64,000 bases of DNA from Alphaproteobacteria bacterium (GCA_017524525.1 JAFXVM010000001.1:7256-71255), one strand, 5' to 3'; positions 1,501-15,350 are shown, numbered from the stretch's first letter. Translations and numbers: made by a program. The notes: generated from the sequence alone by a model not told the origin.

Positions 1501-1843
1501 GAAGACATCTTATCAAATTGGATTGTATTCTGAATTTATCGCCAGAATGTATCTGCGTTTTCATGGGTACAAAATATTAAAAAGTCGCTATGTGACAGGT
1601 AAAAATACTAATCGCGCAGAAATAGACATCATCGCAAAACATAAAAACACAATCGTTTTTGTTGAAGTCAAATATCGAAAAGATGTTTCTGCGGCATGGG
1701 ATGCGATAACACCAACACAAGCCGCACGATTGCGTCGCGCCGCAGAAACTTATTTAATCAAAACCAGATGGACAGGTGATGCGCGCTTTGATGTAATCGT
1801 AGTATGTGGGTCCAAAATACATTGGGCTAAAAATGCAATTTAA
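1490..1843 (+). CDS. yraN: YraN family (UPF0102) endonuclease-like protein
   Basis: 117 aa from ATG 1490. Typical YraN core: EIDIIAK...IVFVEVKYR...ARFDVIVV. The longer ORF from 1397 overlaps the upstream gene and is unlikely to be the true start. Confidence 0.75.
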   Translation: MLSKKTSYQIGLYSEFIARMYLRFHGYKILKSRYVTGKNTNRAEIDIIAKHKNTIVFVEVKYRKDVSAAWDAITPTQAARLRRAAETYLIKTRWTGDARFDVIVVCGSKIHWAKNAI

Positions 1844-2100
1844 TTTTTTATAACTGCACTTTTAATCAAAGTCACATCTTCTTTGATTCCATCTATTTTT
1901 AATTGCAATTGTCCAATACCAGATTCCAGCATAGTCGTTCTGTTTTCAAGTGCTGTGATGCGCTGTTCTTGGCGTTCAATTTCAGCAACATATGAATCTT
2001 GGCGAGCAACCCAATAAATCATACCTGCAATAAATACTATTAAAAACCAACTATCACGCAAAGCATCTAAAAAAGATAAAAAATTTTGTTGTTTTGCCAT
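1840..2100 (-). CDS. Small membrane/coiled-coil protein, last gene of the phage-like locus
   Basis: 86 aa from ATG 2100 (the ORF track begins at a GTG at 2106). One TM helix (WFLIVFIAGMIYWV) then heptad-like ERQEQRITALENRTTMLES. Confidence 0.4.
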   Translation of the reverse strand: MAKQQNFLSFLDALRDSWFLIVFIAGMIYWVARQDSYVAEIERQEQRITALENRTTMLESGIGQLQLKIDGIKEDVTLIKSAVIKN

Positions 2101-2148
2101 CAGCACATCAATAATTTACCATAAAATATACGATGACACATTTGTATA

Positions 2149-2349
2149 TTATGTTGGATTATTGCCTCTTTTTATAAAATTTTCTATTTGATGAATCAAC
2201 GCATTCTGTGCAGCCCACCAACGCAAATCATCATTTGTTATATTTGGTCCAACAATGCGCTCTACGGTTATAGAACGCAAATGAGCCAACACTTGTTTTC
2301 CGCTCGCACTTAAAAAAGTACGAGCGTATTGTTTTTCAATATCTTTCAT
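2149..2349 (-). CDS. Small phage-associated protein
   Basis: 66 aa, 4 nt downstream of the portal gene. Small conserved proteins occupy this position in BPP-1/T7-supergroup podoviruses. The family cannot be verified here. Confidence 0.4.
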   Translation of the reverse strand: MKDIEKQYARTFLSASGKQVLAHLRSITVERIVGPNITNDDLRWWAAQNALIHQIENFIKRGNNPT

Positions 2350-2353
2350 AAAG

Positions 2354-3583
2354 TTATCCTTGGATTAACATTTCTTCTTGAGCCATTTGAGCAATAGGTG
2401 CAATGTATTTTAATTCTGCATCACTGTGCAAAGATATTTTTTCTATCAAACCGCGACGAGATAATATCTGCAATCCACGTTCACACAAAGGCTTTATGAA
2501 TTCGTGCAACAGTCTGCCGTATGTTGCCCCCAAGATTCGCACCATATCAGAATTACGCGCCAAAATTTCAGTAGCAGTCATTTCTTTGTCAGACAACAGT
2601 CCAAGTCTGTCTGCCAGCAAAGAATGCCTTATTCTGTCGCGCAAATCGCGCAGTATAATTTGAGAAACATCAAAATCGGCTCCGCTGGATAATGGCGTTA
2701 ATCCTGAACTGCCAACTGCTTTTGGTATAATTGCCCCAGGTGTTAAATTAATGTTAGATAAATTGATAACACCATCATCATCTGCCTGCCAGATACCGCT
2801 GACCGCGATGGTCGCATTTTTTAGAACTAATTCTACAACTTTGTTCGCTGTTTTTATATCTGGCAAAGCACGCAAAACAGGTCCACGACCATAAAGTTCC
2901 CCGCTTACCAAAGACCAACGAAAGATTATATACGGATTAGTTTCAAATGTACCACGCGCCACTATGTTATTCTCTATATCGTCACCAACATCTATCCACG
3001 CCGTAAAATCTTTGCCAATTAAAGACTGAACTAATCTTATCGGTGTTTCCGGATTTGTTTTTATTGTGTCTTTCATGTGAGCCGGCATAGTTATATTTGG
3101 ATACTTTTCCATTAAATCACATGCAGGTAATGATGTGGTATGGAATATCGCATTTGGCAATATCGCTATGTCTTTCATCGGTATAGATGTAAAAGAAAAA
3201 GCAGAAGATGCTCCTATGGGGTTTTCTGCCATGAACAAACACGCCGTACCTAAAACGACCAAATCTATATAACACTGATGAATTGTTGTATAAAAATTTG
3301 AATCATTTAAATGCGCACGCAATACTGATGTTGCAATTTCTGCATTTGGTGATTCGTCGCTTTCGCGAACCAGATTTATCCAAAGCGATTCTGGCGGCGT
3401 TAACAAGGAATACATAGATGCAGCCAAATTATCTACGGCATCCGCTGCAGTTGCATCAAATAATGTGGCAGATTCTGTATCATCTGTGGGAATTGTATAA
3501 CGCATGGCAGATTTCCATCTGGACAGCCATACTTCACGTTCGTCCAACGCACGTTTATATAATTGCATAAGATTTTTTTGCAT
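2354..3583 (-). CDS. Phage portal (head-to-tail connector) protein
   Basis: 409 aa. Lies directly downstream of the terminase nuclease fragment (14-nt gap). Size and position fit a podovirus connector. Called from synteny plus general resemblance. Confidence 0.55.
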   Translation of the reverse strand: MQKNLMQLYKRALDEREVWLSRWKSAMRYTIPTDDTESATLFDATAADAVDNLAASMYSLLTPPESLWINLVRESDESPNAEIATSVLRAHLNDSNFYTTIHQCYIDLVVLGTACLFMAENPIGASSAFSFTSIPMKDIAILPNAIFHTTSLPACDLMEKYPNITMPAHMKDTIKTNPETPIRLVQSLIGKDFTAWIDVGDDIENNIVARGTFETNPYIIFRWSLVSGELYGRGPVLRALPDIKTANKVVELVLKNATIAVSGIWQADDDGVINLSNINLTPGAIIPKAVGSSGLTPLSSGADFDVSQIILRDLRDRIRHSLLADRLGLLSDKEMTATEILARNSDMVRILGATYGRLLHEFIKPLCERGLQILSRRGLIEKISLHSDAELKYIAPIAQMAQEEMLIQG

Positions 3584-3597
3584 ATATTTTCCTTTTT

Positions 3598-4449
3598 TTA
3601 TAACAGACTAAAATCTGTTTTTGCTTTGATAAGACTGGTACGTTGACCCAGTGGCCTTGTCGGCCAAGGCTCCATTGTCAAAGCCCCAGCCAACGCATCC
3701 AGCCCGTCATCGTGTTCCACAGAACCAATCGGCGTCCAAGCCAACATTTCTGATAACAACATTGTTTTTTTGATTTTTTCATGCATATAAAAATGCCCTG
3801 TTGTTAACATCGGTTCTATGGCGTTTAAAATTCTTGTTTCTTTCTTTATATGATTTGATATTTGAATTATGTTTATTAACATCTGCTCTTGTTGAGCTTC
3901 GGTCCTGATTATTTCAGGCAACGCATTACCCAGCCCATTTATTTCTATGCCGATTCTAATTAAAAAGTGTTTTTTCATAAAATCTAATACTGTTTTACAC
4001 TGATTCGCTAGTGGATACAAATCGTCATCTGGCACAGATATATAAAGAATATCGTGTACAAAGATATCTCGATTTTTGTCATCTCGATAAACCAAAACAC
4101 AAACGCTGCCATCAGAATTATTTCTGCCAACCGAAGGATCCCAATAAAAACTGACACCTGATATACGATGATCGCCTATTTTACAGAAACGTTTATCAAA
4201 TTCTTCGTCATAAAAATTAATGGCACCAGGATCAAGATGGACACGCTCTTCTGCGATGTATTCCAGCAGCATTTGAGCAGAAAAATGTCGATGACCAACC
4301 ATTGTTTCCAATTCATGAATTTTTTCAAGCGGAAACATCTCTGGCCACGCCGGATTTCCGCTACTATCTATGATTGGGATTTTTAATTGTTTATATCCAC
4401 TTAAAAAAGGTGTTGAATTATCAAAATTTTCGTTTAATCTAAAAGACAT
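3598..4449 (-). CDS. Terminase large subunit, C-terminal nuclease-domain polypeptide (separate gene)
   Basis: 283 aa with its own ATG. RNase-H-like terminase nuclease motifs are present: FYWDPSVGRNNSDGSVCVLV, IGIEINGLGN and EHDDGLDALAGAL. It has no ATPase motifs. Confidence 0.7.
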   Translation of the reverse strand: MSFRLNENFDNSTPFLSGYKQLKIPIIDSSGNPAWPEMFPLEKIHELETMVGHRHFSAQMLLEYIAEERVHLDPGAINFYDEEFDKRFCKIGDHRISGVSFYWDPSVGRNNSDGSVCVLVYRDDKNRDIFVHDILYISVPDDDLYPLANQCKTVLDFMKKHFLIRIGIEINGLGNALPEIIRTEAQQEQMLINIIQISNHIKKETRILNAIEPMLTTGHFYMHEKIKKTMLLSEMLAWTPIGSVEHDDGLDALAGALTMEPWPTRPLGQRTSLIKAKTDFSLL

Positions 4450-5992
4450 GGACTTTACCCCTAAATCTTTACCTGTTAATTTAGAAGCAGAACAAGCGGT
4501 TCTTGCTGCGGTGTTGATGAATAATCGCGCACTAGAATCTGTGTCGGACTTTTTGTTGCCTGAACACTTTTCACATGCTGCGCACCAAGAAATTTATAAG
4601 TTGGCTTTACGTCAGTTTGCTATTGGGATTCCTTTTGACATCATTACAGCAAAAACATATCTTGAACAACAAGGTATACTGGAAAGCGTGGGCGGTGTTG
4701 AATACCTGTCTAAATTGACCGCTGCGGGCGCAACAGTTGTTAATGTTGAACATTATGGTCGTATCGTTTTTGATAATGCTCGCCGTCGTGATTTGATAAG
4801 TCTGGGCCAAAACATTATTGATGATGCATACACCGAAGATTTGGATAAACCTGTTAATACACAAATAGAATCTGCTGAACAGAAACTGTTTAATTTGGCT
4901 TCAACTGGGCAAAGCGAACGCAATATCGTCACACTGGCTGACGCATTAAAAAGCGCAATGCAAGAAGCAGAAATTGCATACAAAGCAGACGGCAAATTGT
5001 CTGGTTTAACGACCGGTTTAGACGATTTAGATAAATCTATCAGTGGTTTACACCATTCCGATTTGATAATTATTGCTGGGCGTCCTGCTATGGGAAAAAC
5101 CACACTGGCGCTTAACATCGCGTTTAATGCTGCCAATGCTATATTAAATGGTCGCGCAAATCAGCAATACAAAGGTGCTGTCGCGTTTTTCAGTTTGGAA
5201 ATGTCTTATCCACAATTGGCTGCACGTATATTGTCTTCTCAATCAAAAATACCATCTTCTCGCATGCGCGAAGGGAGCAATTTGACAGACGAAGATTTTA
5301 TGAAAATGTCTCAATATACGGACGCTTTGTCAAAAGTGCCTATTGTTATTGACGACACTTCTGAAATGTCTGTTCCTGGGGTAAAAACACGTGCGCGTCG
5401 CATAGCCCGCAAATTCGGTGGAATTGCGCTTATTGTCATTGACTATTTGCAATTGATGACTGTCCCTGGTGGGAAACGCAACGACAACCGCGTTCAAGAA
5501 TTGTCTGAAATTACTCGTGGATTAAAAATCTTGGCCAAAGAATTAGATGTTCCTGTGATTGTGTTGTCCCAGTTGTCTCGTAAGGTCGAAGATCGTGACG
5601 ACAAACGACCAATTTTATCAGATTTGCGTGAATCTGGTTCTATTGAACAAGACGCGGATATTGTCATGTTTACTTACCGCGAAGAATATTATCTAGAAGG
5701 ACATTCCCCAGACAAACGCTTATCCGGTCTTACGTCCGATAATGCTATGCAGGCGTGGCAAAAACGTATGGATTTGTCCAGAAACAAAGCCGATGTTATC
5801 ATCGCTAAAAACCGCCACGGAAAACCTGAAACTGTACATTTAAGTTTCTTTGGCGAATATTCGTTGTTTGATAATTTACAGCATTATCAACAAATACCAG
5901 ACCAAGATTTTGACAATCAAATTCCACAATCGACAGATACAAACTCACAAACAGTGGTCGATATTAATGATATTCCTGACGACATTATTTAA
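4448..5992 (+). CDS. dnaB: Replicative DNA helicase DnaB
   Basis: 514 aa from ATG 4448. N-terminal NLEAEQAVLAAVLMNN, Walker A GRPAMGKTT, Walker B LIVIDYLQLM, LSQLSR, and RESGSIEQDADIV. Carries an acidic ~45 aa C-terminal tail. Confidence 0.9.
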   Translation: MDFTPKSLPVNLEAEQAVLAAVLMNNRALESVSDFLLPEHFSHAAHQEIYKLALRQFAIGIPFDIITAKTYLEQQGILESVGGVEYLSKLTAAGATVVNVEHYGRIVFDNARRRDLISLGQNIIDDAYTEDLDKPVNTQIESAEQKLFNLASTGQSERNIVTLADALKSAMQEAEIAYKADGKLSGLTTGLDDLDKSISGLHHSDLIIIAGRPAMGKTTLALNIAFNAANAILNGRANQQYKGAVAFFSLEMSYPQLAARILSSQSKIPSSRMREGSNLTDEDFMKMSQYTDALSKVPIVIDDTSEMSVPGVKTRARRIARKFGGIALIVIDYLQLMTVPGGKRNDNRVQELSEITRGLKILAKELDVPVIVLSQLSRKVEDRDDKRPILSDLRESGSIEQDADIVMFTYREEYYLEGHSPDKRLSGLTSDNAMQAWQKRMDLSRNKADVIIAKNRHGKPETVHLSFFGEYSLFDNLQHYQQIPDQDFDNQIPQSTDTNSQTVVDINDIPDDII

Positions 5993-6060
5993 ATTTTTCT
6001 TGCCAAGTCTCTAAAAATTGACTATGATTTTGTCAACAACAGATTCCAAGGAGTTTGATT

Positions 6061-7068
6061 ATGGCACAAGAAGAAATAATATTTCCTAATAATATCCGCA
6101 ATATTCGTGCATCGAAAGGGATGAAAATGACGGAATTAGCAAGACGTGCTAATTTATCTTTGTCCGCGGTTTCCAAGATTGAAAAAGGTGTTCGTCGTCT
6201 TAATCAAAAACAATTATTAAATGTATGTACCATTTTGGGTTGCAAACTTTCTGATATATTTATTCACGAATCAGATGCAGTTGCACAAAACTGGCAAAAC
6301 GAAATTAAACGCCGTTTAACAGATAATGAAGACAGCGGTTTGAAAGTGTTCGGTTCTGGTTTACGCAAGATTCGTCAACGTTCCGAAAAAACTATTGCTG
6401 ATGCCGCTAAGGCTGCAAAAATGACTTTGTCTGTATACCATAAAATCGAAGTGGGTCAGCGCGAAGTTTACCAAGACGAAATTGAAGTTTTGGCAAAAGC
6501 ATTCGGTTATACTGTGCAACAATTGTTCAGTGAAATTGCCCAATTATATAATTCTGGCGAATTAACAAAGCAGATAAACAAGGTTACTGAACGTGTAAAA
6601 TCTGTATTAGAACCAGGTAATCCTGTATCTGGATTAGATGTTCACGGTGGTTTGTATGGTGCACAATTATACGATAATGCGCGCAAAAAATTAGTTCCTG
6701 TATTTGGAACACCAGACGGCAAAAGTATCAAATTCAAAAAATCTGATGAAACTATGATTGTTGCTCCTACGATGGTAGAAGGCCGCAGTGGTATTTATGC
6801 TGTTTTACCAAATTCAAAGCGTGTATCTGGCTTTATTCCTGAAACAGCATATGTTTTTGCAGATTCTGCTTTGGAACCAAAGGTCGGTGATTTGGCAGTT
6901 TGTATTGATGATGATTTTTCAAAAATGAAATCTGATACTGTAAGCACTGCACAAATCGTTCTGGTTCGCAAAGACAGTCATGGCAAAATCTATGGACACG
7001 TTGCGAACCCAGAAGAAAAAGTTATTGGCAAAACTATGCACAAAGTCATTATGATTGTTATGCAATAA
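6061..7068 (+). CDS. Tandem XRE-type HTH regulator with CI/LexA-like C-terminal domain
   Basis: 335 aa from ATG 6061, with AAGGAG 8 nt upstream. Two HTH_XRE modules (IRNIRASKGMKMTELARRANLSLSAVSKIEKG and LRKIRQRSEKTIADAAKAAKMTLSVYHKIEVG). The ~150 aa C-terminal beta-rich domain starts LVPVFG, like S24-type repressors. Catalytic Ser/Lys residues are not confirmed. Confidence 0.6.
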   Translation: MAQEEIIFPNNIRNIRASKGMKMTELARRANLSLSAVSKIEKGVRRLNQKQLLNVCTILGCKLSDIFIHESDAVAQNWQNEIKRRLTDNEDSGLKVFGSGLRKIRQRSEKTIADAAKAAKMTLSVYHKIEVGQREVYQDEIEVLAKAFGYTVQQLFSEIAQLYNSGELTKQINKVTERVKSVLEPGNPVSGLDVHGGLYGAQLYDNARKKLVPVFGTPDGKSIKFKKSDETMIVAPTMVEGRSGIYAVLPNSKRVSGFIPETAYVFADSALEPKVGDLAVCIDDDFSKMKSDTVSTAQIVLVRKDSHGKIYGHVANPEEKVIGKTMHKVIMIVMQ

Positions 7069-7092
7069 TTAATTACCAAACGGAGAGAGACC

Positions 7093-7734
7093 ATGCCACA
7101 ACAAGCCCATATAATCGCACAAAGATTATTGAATCTTTATCGCCAAGAACATGTTATTGAAGGGGGGTGGAGTGCTGTTAATAAAATCTTTCTTGAAGAA
7201 GCAACAAACGACCAAATTATCAACGAACTTCAAAATTTGCCCACAGGAAAAAAACTTGTCGCTCACATTGATAATTTGCGCAGTGGTAAAACCCCGATGG
7301 ATACCATAGACAAAGACTTGTTGCCATATGGCGGTTTAATGTCAGATCAAGAAATCACCTTTTCTTTGAATCCGGAAGAGATTGCAGAACTGAAAAACGC
7401 GCTTGATAAATTTGAACCTTCCCCGGAAAATTTAGCAGAAATTAAAAAGTTATCTTTCGTTCAAAAGTTTGGTACCGATTGGTCAAAAGACATCAAAGCA
7501 GCGCTTGTTTCTCATCCAGATATGCTTGAACAATGGAAAACAGTTATTCAAACAGACAAGGCTTATCAAACGTGGTATTCTGCCAAAGAATTGTTGTCTG
7601 ATACATTGACAGAACGTCATCGCGCTCAAATCCAAGCAGATATGCCCGAATATGAAACATTTTTACCTATGTTTGGTGAACAAGGCAAAGCGATGTTAAC
7701 CAAATTGCGAACATTTATGTCTTCTGTGGCTTAG
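7093..7734 (+). CDS. Hypothetical protein (third gene of the dnaB insert)
   Basis: 213 aa. GGAGAG RBS upstream. Its stop overlaps the stop of the convergent terminase ATPase gene. No family recognised. Confidence 0.45.
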   Translation: MPQQAHIIAQRLLNLYRQEHVIEGGWSAVNKIFLEEATNDQIINELQNLPTGKKLVAHIDNLRSGKTPMDTIDKDLLPYGGLMSDQEITFSLNPEEIAELKNALDKFEPSPENLAEIKKLSFVQKFGTDWSKDIKAALVSHPDMLEQWKTVIQTDKAYQTWYSAKELLSDTLTERHRAQIQADMPEYETFLPMFGEQGKAMLTKLRTFMSSVA

Positions 7735-8339
7735 TTTGTTTTATATATTGTGTCTTTTGTGTGTGGCGTCCCGATATAAATCATCGATCCGTGTGGCGAT
7801 AAAATAAAATCTAGTTCGCGCAACCTTTCGCGCAGATTTATTCTTTTTTGTTGTGTATTACATGTATTCGGTACTTCGACATCGTCGCATATTATCAAAT
7901 CAGATCTCATACCAGTAATATTTCCGGTGATACCTTGACATATAACTGACGGTTCTCGAATTCCAATGGGACGTTTAATTGTGATTTTATGAGTACCCCA
8001 TTCTTTTTTTACATCTGGTAAAATTTCACTGCAAAACGGATGATTTTCCAAAATGTTTTTGATATGCGACACCATTCGTGAAGCCAAACTTGATTCAGCA
8101 GATAATATTAATATTCGTGTTTCTGGTTTATGATATAAAACACATGCTGCAAAAACCCCAACTACCGTTGATTTCCCAGAATGTCGAAAAGCAGTCAACA
8201 ATCCACGACGCGGTTCATTGATAAAAACATCTACTAAAAATTCCATTATTTGTTTGTGATGTGCTGGGGTCGAAAAACCAAGGATATTGTTCCAACTGTC
8301 TAAAAAATCAAAGGCTTCCGTAATCGTCATTGTTTTCAT
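7731..8339 (-). CDS. Terminase large subunit, N-terminal ATPase-domain polypeptide (separate gene)
   Basis: 202 aa. Walker A FRHSGKST, Walker B DLIICDDVE, and coupling motif IYIGTPHTKDTIY. It ends 5 residues after that motif and has no nuclease domain. Confidence 0.75.
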   Translation of the reverse strand: MKTMTITEAFDFLDSWNNILGFSTPAHHKQIMEFLVDVFINEPRRGLLTAFRHSGKSTVVGVFAACVLYHKPETRILILSAESSLASRMVSHIKNILENHPFCSEILPDVKKEWGTHKITIKRPIGIREPSVICQGITGNITGMRSDLIICDDVEVPNTCNTQQKRINLRERLRELDFILSPHGSMIYIGTPHTKDTIYKTN

Positions 8340-8856
8340 TATTGGCTGCTTCTGTGACGTATCCGTAATCGTTTATCAAACTGGGCAAAGCGCTGTCTAA
8401 CACATTAAGCAAATTATTATAAAGCCCCAACACTGATCCGCCAGAAAGTTTATCTTCTATGGTTTGTAATGCATAATTTATTTGAGCCAACAAATTATCA
8501 TGAACATTAGCCCAAGAAGACAAATCTATATCTATATTATGCAAATCTTGAAATGCAGCCAACAAAAAATTAAAATCAGAATTTAAATCTTCTGGATCTA
8601 TTTTTTGGGTTGGTTGATAATCAATAGTTCGATTCAAAGACACCTGACGAAAAATATCTATGTGTTTACCAGATAACGGCGCAGAAGGAAACACAACCAG
8701 ACCACCATTAAAATCTTGATTAGGGTTCACATCATATTGCGTATTATCCAATAACACATTATCTATTGCTACTTTGATATCTGCGTTTTGAAAAAAAGGA
8801 AAGGAAAAAACGAATTCTGTGTTAATTCCATCTCCTGTGTATGAAATCTTATACAT
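8308..8856 (-). CDS. Short tail fibre/spike protein with T7-type N-terminal adaptor domain
   Basis: 182 aa. The N-terminus YKISYTGDGINTEFVFSFPFFQNADIKVAIDNVLL matches the usual pattern of podovirus tail-fibre N-domains. Confidence 0.5.
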   Translation of the reverse strand: MYKISYTGDGINTEFVFSFPFFQNADIKVAIDNVLLDNTQYDVNPNQDFNGGLVVFPSAPLSGKHIDIFRQVSLNRTIDYQPTQKIDPEDLNSDFNFLLAAFQDLHNIDIDLSSWANVHDNLLAQINYALQTIEDKLSGGSVLGLYNNLLNVLDSALPSLINDYGYVTEAANNENNDDYGSL

Positions 8857-8865
8857 AACATCCCC

Positions 8866-9213
8866 CTAGCCCGCTATTTTATCTATATTTGACAACCAAG
8901 TTTTTATTATGTTTGGTTTTTTCACTTTCGTTTTTTTAATTTTTTCTAAATTATCCTGTTTTTTTTCATCGTATGGTTGTGCAGTTTCTTCACGCAACCG
9001 CTGTAAAACTGCATTTTCAGAAAAGCTGTTTCCAGCATTACCATTTGCACCGAATTTTGCGCGTTGCGATGCTAACGCTTTTTTTATCAAATTTGTTTTA
9101 ATATTTTCATCTGCTGCAATTTGAGCCAAAATTTTTTGACGTTGATTTTCAGCGGTCTTTTTTGAATTATTGTAATCCAAGACTTTTGTCACATCTGATA
9201 CTAGTTGTCCCAT
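8866..9213 (-). CDS. Small basic virion-associated hypothetical protein
   Basis: 115 aa, K/Q-rich and probably helical. Lies between the nozzle and fibre genes. Confidence 0.35.
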   Translation of the reverse strand: MGQLVSDVTKVLDYNNSKKTAENQRQKILAQIAADENIKTNLIKKALASQRAKFGANGNAGNSFSENAVLQRLREETAQPYDEKKQDNLEKIKKTKVKKPNIIKTWLSNIDKIAG

Positions 9214-9230
9214 AAAAAACTCCTATTTTT

Positions 9231-10943
9231 TTATATTAAATACCAACCTTCTATTGACACAGATAATATTGTCGCTGGTAATTGTTCACTGCTTGAAATA
9301 GTCCACAAAGGTTCTATGGTGTTGCATTGTGTTCCTAATAAATTCATTGACAAATCACCAGTAAAACCAGAGTTGTTTTCGGCATATGCCCAATTAGGTA
9401 TTTCCATACGATAATTATTTACAAACATTGTTTTTGTTTTTATAACTCGGACAGAAATTTTTCTGGTTCTAATTTTTTTTGGGCAATGACCATTTACTAT
9501 AATTGGAAACGACGATACCTTGTAAGAAAATCCGTATGTATCTGCATCTTGTAATTTCGCATTATCAAATTTTTCAAGATATTGTGTATTATTCCTTTTG
9601 ACGATAACATAAGTTTCATTGCCAACAACAGCCACATATTTGAACAAACCATCTGTTTTATAGGTTCCCCATGCTGCAATATCTGTATTAGCATAATTAT
9701 GAAATACAGCCATAGAGCCATCTTCCATAATTAAAAATAATTTGTGTTTCACTGGATTATACGCGATGCTGGTCGGCTGGTTTAATAAATGTTTTGAAAA
9801 CACACATAAATCCGTCGCATTATATTTATTGTTCAAAGTATCTAAATCTAATTCTCGAATATCTTTACCAGATTGAGCAACAAATACAGTACTGCCTTCA
9901 ATTTGTTGTGGTGGCAAATATCTGCTTACAGTGCTACCTATGGCAGTATGTTTTTTTATATTAACATTTGATGGTGTTAGCGGTGTATTTGATATAGCCC
10001 ATTCGCCAGTAGAAGTTAATATTTGTAGCGCATCGCAACTAACCAAATTGCATATTTGATTGTGTTGTGCTGATAATAAAACAGTATATATTGCTTCGTC
10101 GTCTAAGCCTGTTCCTGTATCAAAGTTATTGTATTCGCCAACTTTAGACATCCAAATATTATTTGGTGCAGACGGAGTTCCCCCAAAAACTAACCTGTTT
10201 TGGTGAAAAGCGATAGTCATAGGCCAACCACGTCTTGTGTTAAAGGCGGCTTCAAACCAATCTGTTATAGGAGTAATTGGTATCGTAAAATCACCATTTG
10301 TATAAACTGTTGCTATGCGAGCGCTTTGAACAGATTCTACTATCCACTGTTTATTGTTGACTAATAATCTTACGTTTAACCACGTATTGTCCCACAAATC
10401 CGCGCTTGCAGTAAATGTTGCATGGTTATTATCTATGTTACTGGTCCCGATAGTGATAGAAATATCTTGTGTATCATCATAACGCATAAATGGTATATTC
10501 AAAGTAGTGTTTGAATTCATATAAAAACGAAATACACTCAAAGAAAAACCATTTGCGTTTTTTGTTAATATTTGTGGCGCATAGTTAGGATGCACAAAAA
10601 ACATTGTGTTAAATCTTTGAACGTATTGTAATTTATTCAAATCAGCACTATACCAAGGCGTGACAACTGTCGCTATTTTGTTGTCGTTATAATAGACATC
10701 TAACAATCTGTCGTAAAAAACTAGTAAATATTTTTCTGCATCATTAATTACAAACGGTACTAATATGGAATTATTTGCGATATTCTTTATCTTTTTTAAT
10801 CCTGGTCTGCGTTTCAAAGCCCCGGATTCTAATACATCCATATTTTCAAGTTTTGCTACACCATGAACAGTATTTATTGCATAAAATTCTGGGGCTACTT
10901 CGCCACTAGAAAAAACATTTTGTGTTTTAAGAAAATTTCCCAT
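9231..10943 (-). CDS. Tail tubular protein B / nozzle-like protein
   Basis: 570 aa and beta-rich. Located directly after the adaptor-like gene. N-terminal FSSGEVAPEFYA...LESGALKRRPGL is typical of podovirus nozzle/stabilisation proteins. Confidence 0.5.
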   Translation of the reverse strand: MGNFLKTQNVFSSGEVAPEFYAINTVHGVAKLENMDVLESGALKRRPGLKKIKNIANNSILVPFVINDAEKYLLVFYDRLLDVYYNDNKIATVVTPWYSADLNKLQYVQRFNTMFFVHPNYAPQILTKNANGFSLSVFRFYMNSNTTLNIPFMRYDDTQDISITIGTSNIDNNHATFTASADLWDNTWLNVRLLVNNKQWIVESVQSARIATVYTNGDFTIPITPITDWFEAAFNTRRGWPMTIAFHQNRLVFGGTPSAPNNIWMSKVGEYNNFDTGTGLDDEAIYTVLLSAQHNQICNLVSCDALQILTSTGEWAISNTPLTPSNVNIKKHTAIGSTVSRYLPPQQIEGSTVFVAQSGKDIRELDLDTLNNKYNATDLCVFSKHLLNQPTSIAYNPVKHKLFLIMEDGSMAVFHNYANTDIAAWGTYKTDGLFKYVAVVGNETYVIVKRNNTQYLEKFDNAKLQDADTYGFSYKVSSFPIIVNGHCPKKIRTRKISVRVIKTKTMFVNNYRMEIPNWAYAENNSGFTGDLSMNLLGTQCNTIEPLWTISSSEQLPATILSVSIEGWYLI

Positions 10944-10959
10944 TATGCAATCCTTTTTA

Positions 10960-11478
10960 TTAAAATCTTGAATTTATCAAGGAAAAACTATTTATATTTG
11001 ATTGATTCGAAGATGTACTGTCTATGAATTTAGCAGATTGATATTCTGATTCATACAAAGCCGTCATCATTTTAAAAACATTTGTGTCACCAATCAAAGG
11101 GATACAGAATTCTACTGCCAATTTGGTTGCAACTAATGTCGCAAAATACCCAGGAAAATCTTCTGGTGCAGTCTTTACAATCGCAGATACTTCCAAACTT
11201 TCCCCTGATGTGATTATTTTATTACCAATTATTTGTCCTTCACATTTTAATATACGCAATACATTTGCAGGTATAATAAAATCACCATTTGAATCTTTGG
11301 TTAAAATCAAAGTTTGTGTTGCAAATCGCCATGGGAACATTGCCAACAGAGTATCTGTTACGGAATCAAACAAAGTTCTTGATAATTGGGCAGATGCGGA
11401 ATCTTCTCGCCAAGATTGGATAGGTTTTTCACCCAATTTCAACAAAGCCATTGAACATAAATCTATTTTTGTAAACAT
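10960..11478 (-). CDS. Tail tubular protein A / head-tail adaptor-like protein
   Basis: 172 aa. N-terminal IDLCSMALLKLGEKPIQSW...AMFPWRFA is typical of podovirus gp11-like adaptors. Confidence 0.5.
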   Translation of the reverse strand: MFTKIDLCSMALLKLGEKPIQSWREDSASAQLSRTLFDSVTDTLLAMFPWRFATQTLILTKDSNGDFIIPANVLRILKCEGQIIGNKIITSGESLEVSAIVKTAPEDFPGYFATLVATKLAVEFCIPLIGDTNVFKMMTALYESEYQSAKFIDSTSSNQSNINSFSLINSRF

Positions 11479-11541
11479 ATCTTATACCTATTCATTAAAA
11501 ATGGGTCGCATTTGCGACCCATTGTGTAAGAAAAAACGCGT

Positions 11542-11772
11542 TTATGATAACGCACCTACTGTGACTACACCTTCTGCAACAGTAATCGCTTTGATTGTTG
11601 CTCCATCAGAGCCATTAATCAAAATAATATCACCTGTATTCATTAAGGTTTTTACGCTTGAAAAATAGCCAGATGCAATTATTGTCGCCAATGTAGCACT
11701 TTCTTTGTAGTGCCACAAAGTAAAACCATTAGCATATGCAATCACAGACAAGTTTTTATTTTGAAAAGCCAT
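11542..11772 (-). CDS. Small structural-module hypothetical protein
   Basis: 76 aa ORF directly downstream of the capsid gene. Confidence 0.35.
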   Translation of the reverse strand: MAFQNKNLSVIAYANGFTLWHYKESATLATIIASGYFSSVKTLMNTGDIILINGSDGATIKAITVAEGVVTVGALS

Positions 11773-11794
11773 TTTATTCCCTTTTGGTTATATG

Positions 11795-12622
11795 TTAAGC
11801 AGCATCGTCATCGCATTTGATACGAACAATACCTTCGTTATCAATCAAAACTGCACCCTGAGACATACTGTTGCTGATAAAGTGCGCAGCGCGTTCACCG
11901 TGCCATGTGATATCTGTTTTCACTTCTTGACCACATGCATGACCAATACTGGATGCATGGTACATAAAGCAATCACGGTCATCTCCGCTTGCCAAAGGAA
12001 GCGCGTTGCACAAAATCCAATTAACACCTAACCATTTTCTTGATTCACAACCGTCTACCAAAGGCAAAGAATTGCCAACATAATCAGCAGAAACAAATTC
12101 TGATATTTTTAACAATTCATTCCATTGATGAACACCAACAACTGCGAATCTACGGCCGTCATCTGGCACATCGTTTTCATTTAACTTTTCCAACGCAGCC
12201 ATAATAAGAGCTTTGGTTAAACCTGTGCTGTAATCACCAACATATTGAGTTGCGTTATTCATAGCGCCGATAATTAATTCATCTGTTTTGCGTCCCAAAG
12301 CATAAGCCCCAGCAGATGCAACAACACGACGTTCGTCTACATTGGTTTTCAATTCATCCAATGCATCAACCCAATCGCCAGCATAGTAATCTTGTAATGT
12401 ACATTCTACTGGCGTATGATTCAAATTCATCACAGGAACAATTCCATGACGAGATTTTGTACTGGCGATACCTTTGCCAACTTTTTGGAATGTTGTAGAA
12501 GCGCCAACCACTCCAGATTTGCTGCGAATTGTAGAGCGTAATTTTGTGCCCATTTGTTGATATGCTAAATGCACATCTGCTTCAAATTGTTTTATAAATA
12601 CTTGGTCTACAGACATAGACAT
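11795..12622 (-). CDS. Major capsid protein (HK97-fold type, small)
   Basis: 275 aa. Positioned after the scaffold gene. N-terminal FIKQFEADVHLAYQQMGTKLR pattern is seen in phage capsid families. AAAGGA RBS upstream. Confidence 0.55.
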   Translation of the reverse strand: MSMSVDQVFIKQFEADVHLAYQQMGTKLRSTIRSKSGVVGASTTFQKVGKGIASTKSRHGIVPVMNLNHTPVECTLQDYYAGDWVDALDELKTNVDERRVVASAGAYALGRKTDELIIGAMNNATQYVGDYSTGLTKALIMAALEKLNENDVPDDGRRFAVVGVHQWNELLKISEFVSADYVGNSLPLVDGCESRKWLGVNWILCNALPLASGDDRDCFMYHASSIGHACGQEVKTDITWHGERAAHFISNSMSQGAVLIDNEGIVRIKCDDDAA

Positions 12623-12794
12623 AAGAAATCCTTTTTGTTTAAGTTAACTGTGCCTTGTGGCATGAAAAAATTTTGATTGATGGTTATGCAAATAATGCGC
12701 CATTAAACAAAACATTACACACGGGTCCACAAAAATGGATTATCCAATAAAAAATTCAGTTAGACTTCTATCATCTAACTGAAAAATTTATCAT

Positions 12795-12825
12795 AAAAAA
12801 ATCCCCAAAATCTGCGATTCTGGGG
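12795..12825 (-). terminator. Intrinsic terminator after the K/A-rich gene
   Basis: On the minus strand: CCCCAGAATCGCAGATTTTGGGG hairpin followed by a T-run. Confidence 0.6.
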
Positions 12826-12848
12826 ACAAATAATTGATTAACTATTTA

Positions 12849-13142
12849 TTATTTTTTCTTTACTACTTTTTTAGCAGCTGGTTTTTTTGCAGCAACTTTT
12901 TTTGCAGGTGCTTTTTTAGCAACTGGTTTTTTTGCAACTACTTTTTTAGCAGCTGGTTTTTTTGCAGCAACTTTTTTTGCAGGTGCTTTTTTAGCAACTG
13001 GTTTTTTTGCAACTACTTTTTTAGCAGCTGGTTTTTTTGCAGGTGCTTTTTTAGCAACTGGTTTTTTTGCAGCAGGTTTTTTTGCAGCAGCTGGTTTAGC
13101 AGCTGTTTTTGTGCATCCACATTTTTTCTTTAAGCCGAACAT
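12849..13142 (-). CDS. Lysine/alanine-rich histone-H1-like basic protein
   Basis: 97 aa from ATG 13142, with AAGGAGAG 7 nt upstream. MFGLKKKCGCTKT followed by AKKPAAKK / VAKKPVAKKAPAKK repeats through to the C-terminus. Confidence 0.7.
   Translation of the reverse strand: MFGLKKKCGCTKTAAKPAAAKKPAAKKPVAKKAPAKKPAAKKVVAKKPVAKKAPAKKVAAKKPAAKKVVAKKPVAKKAPAKKVAAKKPAAKKVVKKK
12862..13090. repeat. 75-nt tandem repeat (about 3 copies) inside the K/A-rich gene
   Basis: The string actacttttttagcagctggttttttt recurs at 12862, 12937 and 13012. The period of 75 nt equals 25 codons. Confidence 0.85.
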
Positions 13143-13239
13143 AATTCTCTCCTTTCTATGTTTTCGGATAGAACAAAATTTTTTTGTTCTTGTTTTATAT
13201 TTTATATGAAAGAAAACAAATAGTAAAGAATAAAATGAA

Positions 13240-13896
13240 TTATGAATATAATTTTTTAAAACCATTTTCAATTTTTCTAACATACTCTTCATCATGATCG
13301 CGCCAATATTTTGGATCGCGCATCATATCACGCAGAACATCATCTGTTAAATTTTCTGTCGAACTTTTATTTGTTAAAACATCAGGTTCCATTGATTGCA
13401 TCATCTTGTATATACCTTGTATTCCCTGGGGTGTAGCGCACAATTCATCAAATGCATCTTTTGGTAAATATCTTTCACCAAACGCATTTATTTCACGTAA
13501 AGCATCTTTCATTTTTTCATCATCACCAAAAAAATTTTTCAATTCATTTATAGCATTCGTTTGATTTTGTAATTGAAATAAATTTTTTAATGTTGGTTGT
13601 AAAAATTCTTCTGCGATTGCATAAATTTGTTCAACTTGTTTTGAAGTTAAACCAATTTCATGAAATTTTTCGCGAACCGATTCGTCTTCAAACAAAGGAT
13701 TGATTGGATAATCAGCAGCACTATCTGGGACACCAATTGCATGATTAAACTTTTGTTTTGTTGCATCATCACTATCATCTTTTGGCAAAGATATCATGTT
13801 GCTCATTTTCTTTTCGAGTTCACAATATGATTTTACTAACGCAGATGTATTTAATTCACCTTTGTCATCTAGAAATTTTTCTGGAATTTGTTCCAT
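13240..13896 (-). CDS. Capsid scaffolding/assembly protein
   Basis: 218 aa from ATG 13896 (AAGGAAA RBS). Acidic and helical. MEQIPEKFLDDKGELNTSALVKSYCELEKK resembles podovirus scaffold N-termini. Lies upstream of the capsid gene. Confidence 0.5.
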   Translation of the reverse strand: MEQIPEKFLDDKGELNTSALVKSYCELEKKMSNMISLPKDDSDDATKQKFNHAIGVPDSAADYPINPLFEDESVREKFHEIGLTSKQVEQIYAIAEEFLQPTLKNLFQLQNQTNAINELKNFFGDDEKMKDALREINAFGERYLPKDAFDELCATPQGIQGIYKMMQSMEPDVLTNKSSTENLTDDVLRDMMRDPKYWRDHDEEYVRKIENGFKKLYS

Positions 13897-14086
13897 TAGA
13901 TTTTCCTTTGGTTGAAGATTCTTGTTTAAGAAAATAAATGCCCCCCAATGTGAATATTGTTTGCAGCATTGAAAACACATCTGCATCACCAACAAGATAT
14001 GCGCCCACAGCAGATACAATACCGACACTGGAAATAACATAAGTTTTACGATTTTGTAAATAACCGCCTTTGATTATTTTGTTCAT
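13865..14086 (-). CDS. Small membrane protein, holin candidate
   Basis: 73 aa with two hydrophobic segments (VISSVGIVSAVGAYLV and LQTIFTLGGIYFL). Lies immediately after the hydrolase gene. Confidence 0.4.
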   Translation of the reverse strand: MNKIIKGGYLQNRKTYVISSVGIVSAVGAYLVGDADVFSMLQTIFTLGGIYFLKQESSTKGKSNGTNSRKISR

Positions 14087-14103
14087 GAAAATCCTTTTGT
14101 TAT

Positions 14104-14514
14104 TTATAAATAATAAAGTATGTCTTCACATTCAAATATATAACCACGCGCAACTGCCCATTGTGGCATAACATCTGTGTGATGAAATTTAGTTGCGCCA
14201 AAAACACTGTCGCGTAAATTACCATGCAACATAGTTTTAACAACCCGCAAACACATTTGAAGCCTTCTGTCTTTTGTATCCACAGACAAAAATTTTTTTC
14301 GCGGAGAAAAATGATTTAAAGAGTCGAAAATATTTTTATCCGTTGCAATATCTTCAAAAGACTTTTTATATTTAACATGAATGTTATATATCATAGATGC
14401 CATTGCTTCAACAGCCTGCAAAGATACACCTTTTGTCTCAGCAAATATGATTCGTGCTAATTTATACGGTACAATTTGTGTATCGTCTGGATTGTTTATT
14501 AAAAATAGTTGCAT
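14104..14514 (-). CDS. SleB-type cell wall hydrolase (endolysin candidate)
   Basis: 136 aa. LARIIFAETKG...AVEAMASMIYN...FHHTDVMPQWA matches the Hydrolase_2/SleB pattern. Confidence 0.6.
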   Translation of the reverse strand: MQLFLINNPDDTQIVPYKLARIIFAETKGVSLQAVEAMASMIYNIHVKYKKSFEDIATDKNIFDSLNHFSPRKKFLSVDTKDRRLQMCLRVVKTMLHGNLRDSVFGATKFHHTDVMPQWAVARGYIFECEDILYYL

Positions 14515-14666: not shown

Positions 14667-15350
14667 TTAAATACTGATTTCGTCCCCGTATGTTAAAATA
14701 TATCTGGTTCCTTCACGTAAAACCAATGCACCGTCTTCGTTAAGTCCCATTAATTCTGCGGGTTTGCCGTGGTATTGAATCGTTTTATTAAGACCTGCTG
14801 CCAAATCCATCCAACGTTCACGTACAACAGAAAAATTTGCACCACGCCATTTATCTATTTTTTTCATTAAAACATTCAAAACTTCTTTGATATCAACATC
14901 TGGCTTGTATTTATGTATTTTAGTTGTTCTATATTCTTTGACAGTTGGACAAGTTTTTACATTTATTCCAATTCCAACAATTACAAAATTTTGAGAATAT
15001 TCTATCAAAACACCACTGATTTTTTTACCATCTATTAAAACATCATTGGGCCATTTTATTTGCGGATTCATTCCAAAAGAAATTAATGTTTCTGCAATTG
15101 CAACCGCAACTGCATAAGACAATCTAGGATCGCGTTCATCTAGTTTATAAATAAACGAAACATACAAATTACCATGATGCGAAACCCATGTCCGTCTGTA
15201 TCTTCCACGACCTGCACTTTGTGCCAAAGCCATAATTACCGTTTTATTAGTCGCAGTTCCACGTGCAATTAAATCATGCGCAAAATCTTGCGTGCTGGTT
15301 ATTTTATCAAAAGACAATAATTTATAAGTGTCCAATTTTGTATTTTCCAT
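14667..15350 (-). CDS. birA: Biotin-[acetyl-CoA-carboxylase] ligase
   Basis: 227 aa. GRGRYRRTW motif and KWPNDVLIDGKKISGVL. No N-terminal HTH (group I type). Confidence 0.85.
   Translation of the reverse strand: MENTKLDTYKLLSFDKITSTQDFAHDLIARGTATNKTVIMALAQSAGRGRYRRTWVSHHGNLYVSFIYKLDERDPRLSYAVAVAIAETLISFGMNPQIKWPNDVLIDGKKISGVLIEYSQNFVIVGIGINVKTCPTVKEYRTTKIHKYKPDVDIKEVLNVLMKKIDKWRGANFSVVRERWMDLAAGLNKTIQYHGKPAELMGLNEDGALVLREGTRYILTYGDEISI

Follow-up and report, generated by a model that had tools for sequence, protein, structure and literature searches.

A T7-type large terminase encoded as two genes on either side of a cellular dnaB in a phage-derived cluster of Candidatus Enterousia and related Alphaproteobacteria

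In known structures of the large terminase subunit (TerL) of bacteriophages, an ASCE subdomain is followed, in this order, by a lid subdomain, a short linker and a nuclease (PMC5727402). In the prevailing view of TerL as a single-chain motor, ATP hydrolysis in the ASCE core is passed via lid and linker to the nuclease (PMC5727402, PMC3074133). Twort-like and Bastillevirinae phages provide examples of TerL genes that are broken by a group I intron, an intein or a homing-endonuclease gene (PMC5618024, PMC11878797). Among elements resembling gene transfer agents (GTAs), one of podovirus-like type, the FpGTA of Faecalibacterium, was first described as recently as 2026 (PMC12946183). Here we analyse a stretch of 64,000 nucleotides from an Alphaproteobacteria bacterium (GCA_017524525.1, JAFXVM010000001.1:7256-71255; hereafter the window, to the whole of which all coordinates refer unless a related locus, numbered L001 and so on, is named), in which a T7-type TerL is encoded as two genes, TerL-N and TerL-C, with an opposite-strand insert that carries dnaB between them. 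A split terminase of this kind is not described in the GTA and terminase literature that we searched: the split proteins in a review on jumbo phages are RNA polymerase and DNA polymerase, with no terminase among them, and a 2026 review on packaging makes no mention of split terminases. The 'two separate genes' of an Arthrobacter phage paper refer to lysis genes.

An initial annotation, made from the window sequence alone, had read the region as one large terminase in two genes around a 3.3-kb opposite-strand insert of three plus-strand genes, with a total of 485 aa that is normal for TerL, and left two options, a terminase that works as two polypeptides or one that is disarmed. The ATPase and nuclease motifs and the open reading frame (ORF) coordinates on which this was based are all found back in the ORF translations. 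TerL-N (7731-8339, minus strand, 202 aa) comprises the ASCE ATPase core of a T7-type TerL with Walker A (RHSGKST), Walker B (DLIICDDVE) and motif III (IYIGTPHT), and TerL-C (3598-4449, minus strand, 283 aa) comprises the next ATPase strand, the lid helices, the linker and an RNase H-like nuclease with FYWDPSVG, IEINGLG and EHDDGLDALAGAL. Both halves give consecutive matches to the same TerL models: TerL-N covers positions 275-459 (E 1e-45) and TerL-C positions 468-712 (E 1.5e-37) of the PHROG 38 model, and on the NCBIfam model termin_lrg_T7 (NF033889) they cover positions 5-190 and 334-500, with 226 bits for TerL-N and 91 bits for TerL-C alone (curated cut-off 150). On an unsplit relative of 498 aa (P0123), TerL-N aligns to residues 9-196 and TerL-C to residues 205-464. 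Pfam recognises Terminase-T7_RNaseH-like (E 1.6e-5) and Terminase_6C (E 5.7e-4) on TerL-C, both slightly under their curated cut-offs. The summed length of 485 aa lies within the 450-510 aa of unsplit relatives. These alignments show that TerL-N and TerL-C are complementary parts of one T7-type TerL, of which no segment is duplicated or lost, and the proposal of a single terminase in two genes is hereby borne out.

The split is not restricted to the window. A scan with one genome per species yielded 246 genomes with a TerL-N relative, and the best 80 of these 246 were fetched as loci; these 80 are 74-92% identical, belong to metagenome-assembled genomes of Candidatus Enterousia and unnamed Alphaproteobacteria, and originate from rumen, horse, chicken, mouse and human gut. 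IMG/VR adds 71 segments that represent the same chromosomal locus, with identity down to 63%. As determined by tblastn with all window proteins, the order TerL-N, opposite-strand insert, TerL-C, portal is kept in all of these 80 and 71 loci that reach far enough, and ATPase and nuclease lie on separate ORFs ~3.3 kb apart in every locus covering both halves, unsplit TerLs being encountered only among relatives of 51% identity or less. Of the 59 IMG/VR loci in which TerL-N and TerL-C are both present, 58 have them 3276-3495 nt apart and one, L156, 4616 nt apart. An assembly artefact is excluded, as independent assemblies show the same arrangement in 80 genome loci and in 71 from IMG/VR. The protein database holds 830 relatives of TerL-N and 651 of TerL-C; among the matches listed, TerL-N relatives are all ~200 aa long and TerL-C relatives 245-284 aa (mostly 282), except for one of 402 aa. 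In this last protein (L083, 8228-9436) part of the nuclease region is tandem-duplicated, query residues 7-249 being followed by residues 96-282, in a locus that also misses the fibre gene described below.

Wherever a contig covers them, both halves are intact ORFs (81 TerL-N and 68 TerL-C sequences, window included). Walker A (RHSGKST), Walker B with its catalytic Glu and motif III (IGTPHT) are invariant or nearly so in the 81 TerL-N sequences, and the same holds for the acidic nuclease motifs YWDPS, E169 and HDDGLDA in the 68 TerL-C sequences. The median pairwise ratio of nonsynonymous to synonymous substitution rates (dN/dS; Nei-Gojobori, pairs with dS <1.5) is 0.092 for TerL-N and 0.170 for TerL-C, compared to 0.097 for dnaB, 0.066 for portal and 0.087 for capsid, values that are approximate as dS is near saturation (median ~1.3), although the contrast with neutrality is still large. 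Overall, TerL halves, portal, capsid and tail genes range from 0.07 to 0.2, with higher values for scaffold (0.41) and hydrolase (0.29), and in the closest pair, the window and L001, TerL-N and TerL-C reach 0.035 and 0.114. Intact ORFs, low dN/dS and invariant motifs refute neutral drift of either half and render a disarmed terminase unlikely, such that of the two options of the initial annotation only the terminase working as two polypeptides fits. Judging from these sequences, the split TerL is a lineage-wide, vertically inherited feature of what appears to be a domesticated phage-derived cluster, a generality which the initial annotation, with one sequence at hand, had missed; the split itself is real and more general than could then be seen.

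The initial annotation had located the split at the ATPase/nuclease linker, and on this point it has to be corrected. To position the break, the fused TerL-N and TerL-C were modelled by AlphaFold with an alignment of 87 sequences, consisting of unsplit relatives and homologues of each half; a single-sequence run of the fused TerL had given a pLDDT of 34, so that the alignment-based model was used instead. This model has a pLDDT of 93.7 and a pTM of 0.82 and contains all elements of the TerL fold (ASCE core, lid, linker and nuclease). Its sole weak stretch is formed by residues 200-220 (pLDDT <50 at 207-210), which is precisely the junction between residues 202 and 203, and past this junction follow a beta-strand (222-226), two helices (243-261) and, from ~296 onwards, the nuclease sheet. 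The family profile aligns over its own full length to the T7-type TerL structures 8dgc and 4bij (E ~1e-69), and in this alignment to intact T7-type TerLs the break falls at about residues 211-218, just past motif III and far upstream of the nuclease domain. Foldseek searches with the fused model returned full-length TerLs as top matches, the best being a T7-like TerL, 8dgc_E (E 2.5e-26), and crystals of the isolated P74-26 ATPase domain (~255 residues) align across ~285 columns. Because a strand and helices precede the nuclease sheet, and in view of the profile mapping and the published placement of the lid, the break is placed inside the ATPase domain, between ASCE core and lid, and not at the ATPase/nuclease linker. 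According to the model, TerL-C carries roughly 60-90 residues (~60 of lid and ~30 of linker) ahead of its nuclease domain, and strand 222-226 probably completes the ATPase sheet.

The DNA between both halves was described initially as three plus-strand genes (dnaB, a tandem helix-turn-helix (HTH) regulator and a 213-aa ORF) with exact junctions and with no transposase, homing endonuclease, intein or flanking repeat, and this description stands in full. The first gene, dnaB (4448-5992, plus strand), which is the constant part of the insert, encodes a replicative helicase that by its scores is of the cellular alphaproteobacterial type and not of the phage type: it reaches 599.8 bits on NF006606 (cut-off 540) and 498.8 bits on TIGR00665 (cut-off 385), and stays under the cut-off of 499 on the phage_DnaB model (405 bits). 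In 38 of 73 loci dnaB has no alternative in-frame start upstream. The HTH regulator (6061-7068, plus strand, dN/dS 0.115) possesses two HTH_3 domains according to Pfam and an uncharacterised C-terminal domain; its conserved ATG is located at 6061, the mechanical ORF beginning at 6055. The third gene, o213 (7093-7734, plus strand, 213 aa, dN/dS 0.214), always lies downstream of the HTH gene and has no PHROG or NCBIfam match, two Pfam matches that are both under curated cut-offs, and no homologue in phage records. On one side, where TerL-C and dnaB diverge, their start codons share 2 nt in the sequence CATG (4447-4450), an overlap present in 56 of 68 loci, with a gap of 19-25 nt in 11 and of 269 nt in one. 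On the other side TerL-N and o213 converge, and their stop codons overlap in TTAG (7731-7734), which leaves no space for a terminator; this 4-nt overlap recurs in 33 loci, and the spacing is between -17 and +6 nt in 71 of 79.

Pfam, PHROG and NCBIfam searches revealed no transposase, homing-endonuclease or intein domains (HNH and LAGLIDADG included) on the five ORFs of the region and no recombinase domain in or beside the insert. An Rfam scan at permissive thresholds retrieved no intron, and no flanking direct or inverted repeats were found at the insert junctions. Moreover, since the TerL halves already sum to a normal length, there is no room for intein halves. An origin of the insert as intron, split intein, homing endonuclease or transposon is ruled out by these domain, Rfam and repeat searches.

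The signals needed by the genes at the CATG junction appear to be nested in each other's coding sequences. A dnaB promoter-like element, TTGAAT and TAATCT separated by 16 nt (4413-4440, plus strand; its function is deduced from the sequence), lies inside TerL-C codons 4-13. It is nearly invariant in 56 loci and its 3' end is situated 7 nt before the dnaB ATG, which suggests that the dnaB mRNA is leaderless. The third-position entropy is 0.6-0.7 over the first 20 codons of TerL-C versus a gene mean of 1.37, consistent with a double constraint imposed by the protein and the embedded dnaB promoter. Conversely, a Shine-Dalgarno-like GGGG for TerL-C (4458-4461, minus strand), 8 nt upstream of its ATG, is encoded by dnaB codons 4-5; among the 56 loci with the CATG junction this motif reads GGAG in 42 and GGGG in 12. 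Neither a promoter scan, which was not above chance (61 sites versus 57.8 expected), nor a comparative antisense scan of the insert pointed to a promoter for the operon of TerL-C and portal. The only promoter-like antisense site that recurs, ~600 nt upstream of TerL-C (53 of 68 loci), turned out to consist of the codons for the DnaB Walker A motif (LIIIAGRP...MGKT) read on the other strand, and its conservation, being explained by the DnaB protein, is not usable as promoter evidence. Because there is no intergenic space upstream of TerL-C and no TerL-C promoter was found, transcription of TerL-C, portal and the two small genes o66 and o88 behind them must, going by the gene layout, cross at least part of dnaB in antisense together with the dnaB promoter.

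More divergent relatives shed light on the origin of the split. The nearest unsplit TerLs (L081, L085) are 46-51% identical and are part of ordinary T7-like clusters; identity to cultured phages is ~35% for TerL-N, and the capsid is 44% identical to that of a Pelagibacter podovirus. In the closest unsplit relative (L081, 555-2628) scaffold and capsid genes are separated by two genes on the opposite strand, one for a Lactamase_B/ODP protein and one of 92 aa, which indicates that such insertions into T7-like clusters are not unique to Enterousia. The most divergent split locus, L156 (4731-13855; 63% identity, GC content 0.51), has its TerL broken at the same place, with dnaB between the halves and convergent with TerL-N. 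Its insert lacks the HTH and o213 genes, in the place of which an 834-aa ORF is found between dnaB and TerL-C, and pilin-like and ParA-like genes lie between TerL-C and portal. As the HTH gene and o213 are present in the Enterousia insert and not in that of L156, they are no constant parts of it. A neighbour-joining TerL tree unites Enterousia with L156 in a single clade in 200 of 200 bootstraps. The TerL split that contains dnaB has a single origin, with dnaB as its constant part. A pair of adjacent genes resembling the HTH gene and o213 (35-37% identity) is also present in L086 (MT835708.1, 7782-9580), where there is no terminase or dnaB; this record, labelled 'Bacteriophage sp.', holds in addition a homologue of a lipoprotein of the window and is probably a bacterial fragment.

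In two loci of another bacterial lineage (L158 and L159, 7549-10928), TerL is encoded by two adjacent cistrons which are divided in the same loop past motif III. These cistrons overlap as ATGGGTGA with GGAGGAG upstream, have no insert, and encode an N part of 210 aa and a C part of 271-284 aa that are only 35% identical overall; the two assemblies differ in a nearby repeat. No capsid or portal was found within 8 kb of this split TerL. The TerL island of these loci contains variable defence-like genes, either an OLD/TOPRIM ATPase or an M78 peptidase with Beta_protein. The tree joins them to the Enterousia clade in just 30 of 200 bootstraps and hence does not resolve whether an adjacent split of this type was the ancestor of the Enterousia split, but theirs is probably an independent fission, and their two-cistron TerL shows that the loop tolerates fission. 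Two short metagenomic contigs, L161 (~890-900) and L162 (~3910), have an in-frame stop in the same loop past motif III, which may reflect pseudogenes, errors or further fission events.

Both TerL halves are part of a T7-like head-tail-packaging cluster of ~12.7 kb (1840-14514), which is on the minus strand apart from the insert and in the order of transcription consists of hydrolase, scaffold, major capsid, o76, tail A/B, o115, fibre-N protein, TerL-N, insert, TerL-C, portal, o66 and o88. The related loci that reach far enough share this cluster and its host-gene flanks. The portal gene (2354-3583, minus strand) matches Head-tail_con with E 3e-79 and has the dN/dS of 0.066 given above. The Bbp19-like o66 (2149-2349, minus strand, 66 aa) matches PF25181 with E 1e-4, under the curated cut-off, and o88 (1840-2106, minus strand, 88 aa) has a hydrophobic N-terminal stretch in its translation. 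The genes upstream of TerL-N (8308-14514, minus strand) encode the fibre-N protein, o115, tubular tail B and A, o76, capsid, an HC2-like ORF, scaffold and hydrolase. Structural genes were assigned by PHROGs 1640, 376, 394 and 3437 and by Pfam Phage_T7_Capsid and Hydrolase_2. A weak cell-wall-hydrolase/endolysin match was obtained for o136, and no holin family was matched. Beyond the insert, 1840-14514 contains structural, packaging and hydrolase genes only. The searched ORFs of the cluster and its near flanks include none for an integrase, a DNA polymerase, a primase or an RNA polymerase of phage type. The flanks consist of host genes: birA (14667-15350, beyond the hydrolase end of the cluster), lpxI, a tRNA methyltransferase gene and yraN, with alaS and dacC further out. 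Candidatus Enterousia belongs to the order Rs-D84, the genomes of which are mostly <1 Mb (PMC12306168), and the retention of ~9 kb of phage genes in genomes of this size argues for their use.

Two genes of the cluster deserve separate mention. The gene for the 182-aa fibre N-domain protein (8308-8856, minus strand) is missing in L010, L061, L068, L079, L083, L136 and L149-L152, the remaining cluster being unchanged. The HC2-like, Lys/Ala-rich ORF (12849-13295, minus strand; PF07382, E 2e-14) between the scaffold and capsid genes shows 15-nt periodic repeats and poor conservation in relatives, and could encode a DNA-condensing internal protein or be an ORF generated by the repeats.

Taken together, the two ORFs probably encode a two-chain, heterodimeric TerL in a vertically inherited T7-like, possibly GTA-like cluster with a host dnaB between its cistrons. 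TerL-N would supply the ASCE ATPase core with Walker A, Walker B and its catalytic Glu, and motif III, and TerL-C everything from the next strand onwards, namely lid subdomain, interdomain linker and RNase H-like nuclease; with the backbone cut in a flexible surface loop, we infer that both chains reassemble non-covalently into the normal TerL fold. Because integration and replication genes are lacking and inheritance is vertical, the cluster would be a domesticated phage-derived particle system, possibly a GTA, that descends from a T7/pelagiphage-like cluster which lost its integration and phage-replication genes and has been passed on vertically in Candidatus Enterousia and relatives. As to the order of events, fission into two cistrons may have come first, followed by a rearrangement that placed dnaB between them and by fixation of this host dnaB in the ancestor of the clade. 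Genome compaction would later have erased the spacers, bringing the dnaB promoter into TerL-C codons and the TerL-C ribosome-binding site into dnaB codons.

A number of points weigh against this two-chain terminase. The case is built on sequence and predicted structure; the dN/dS values are approximate, as mentioned; and the fused model, being one chain, is silent on the affinity between two separate ones. In T4, regulation of the nuclease needs communication between ATPase and nuclease through the linker (PMC3074133), and by analogy a backbone break near the lid could impair this coupling. Neither a small terminase nor large internal core proteins were recognised among the searched cluster proteins, and the scans described above did not find a TerL-C promoter. 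Since loci and not whole genomes were compared, a second intact terL or a second dnaB may be present elsewhere.

Several of these points would equally suit a dead prophage remnant, in which an insertion inactivated the terminase and the ORFs stayed open by chance or were re-used outside packaging: function is argued from sequence and models, small terminase and core proteins are not recognised, the TerL-C promoter was not found, and L158 and L159 illustrate, by their split TerL without nearby capsid or portal, that TerL fragments persist outside a head cluster. We nevertheless regard a dead remnant as unlikely. In ~150 loci both TerL halves and the genes for portal, capsid, scaffold and tail tube have stayed intact and in the same order, with a dN/dS of 0.07-0.2 for all but the scaffold, the catalytic motifs of both activities are invariant, genomes <1 Mb do not keep junk, and separate new uses would leave unexplained why the halves are retained alongside portal and capsid. 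Signs of decaying pseudogenes, such as relaxed selection, frameshifts and a patchy distribution, are not seen in the related loci.

The absence of integrase, DNA polymerase, primase and RNA polymerase among the searched ORFs of cluster and near flanks, and the host genes that flank the same locus on both sides in many species, also make it quite improbable that we are dealing with an active, non-domesticated temperate podovirus or satellite which carries dnaB and a repressor inside its terminase gene. IMG/VR does list 71 segments as viral, and phages typically carry a helicase or a CI-like HTH regulator as cargo, yet these segments represent the same chromosomal locus, dnaB scores as a cellular equivalog below the phage-DnaB cut-off, and the phage-like genes have diverged in step with dnaB. 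In another scenario the insert would be excised in particle-producing cells, like the skin element in sigK or the nifD element, and restore a single terL. Such cells would be terminal, so that the loss of dnaB would be tolerable, and o213 has no assigned function; excision is very improbable all the same, given that no recombinase domain was detected in or next to the insert and no repeats at its junctions, that a separate start or stop codon is conserved in either half and TerL-C has its own Shine-Dalgarno motif, that the insert of L156 differs in content at an unchanged split, and that L158 and L159 have the same loop as two cistrons without insert.

Building on the two-chain terminase, the nesting may be read as a switch, in which induction of the particle genes silences dnaB and the HTH regulator by transcriptional interference, and dnaB expression blocks completion of the packaging motor. 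This reading, which we find doubtful, stems from the observation that, with no intergenic space ahead of TerL-C and with overlapping stops of TerL-N and o213, TerL-C, portal, o66 and o88 seem transcribable only in antisense through dnaB, perhaps through the whole regulator-dnaB operon, and then across the dnaB promoter inside TerL-C. If true, a cell would decide for particle production completely or not at all, and terminally. This switch would come in addition to a terminase that naturally has two chains and to a T7-like GTA, unrecognised so far, in genome-reduced gut Alphaproteobacteria.

With regard to the packaging motor, a natural TerL that is cut between ASCE core and lid while under strong purifying selection across hundreds of species shows where the chain can break, and provides a ready-made system for testing models of force transmission. 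The split is also the mark of a podovirus-like cluster, putatively domesticated and not described before, whose gut and rumen hosts are uncultured and have genomes <1 Mb; if this cluster makes particles, it would represent a new type of GTA in animal gut microbiomes. Furthermore, gene nesting through genome compaction is rarely as clear as here, where the predicted promoter of an essential host gene lies within coding sequence of phage origin, and the nesting of dnaB may couple replication to particle production.

Excludons, in which convergent or divergent operons overlap, are described in Listeria. They have in common with this locus that operons on opposite strands are arranged without intergenic space and that one is transcribed in antisense through the other, although the analogy is a hypothetical one. 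The terL genes interrupted by introns or inteins are likewise terminase genes broken by foreign DNA, in which RNA or protein splicing restores a single polypeptide. Here, in contrast, there is no ribozyme, intein or endonuclease domain, the inserted genes run on the other strand, and both TerL-N and TerL-C begin and end with codons of their own. The adjacent two-cistron TerL of L158 and L159 shares fission in the same loop past motif III, but has overlapping cistrons and no insert. Like GTAs such as RcGTA, BaGTA and FpGTA, the cluster combines genes for head, tail and packaging in the host chromosome, lacks those for integration and phage replication, and shows a fixed chromosomal locus, vertical inheritance and purifying selection; it differs from them in its T7/pelagiphage-type genes, in its occurrence in Rs-D84 Alphaproteobacteria, in its split terminase and in being a candidate known from its genes. 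Finally, the T7-type TerLs (T7 gp19, the PhiV-1 TerL of PDB 8DGC and the family NF033889) have the same motifs, subdomain order and fold and the same neighbours, namely portal, capsid and tail tube A and B, whereas in the lineage described here, at ~35% identity to cultured phages, this TerL is divided over two genes ~3.3 kb apart with an opposite-strand cellular dnaB in between.

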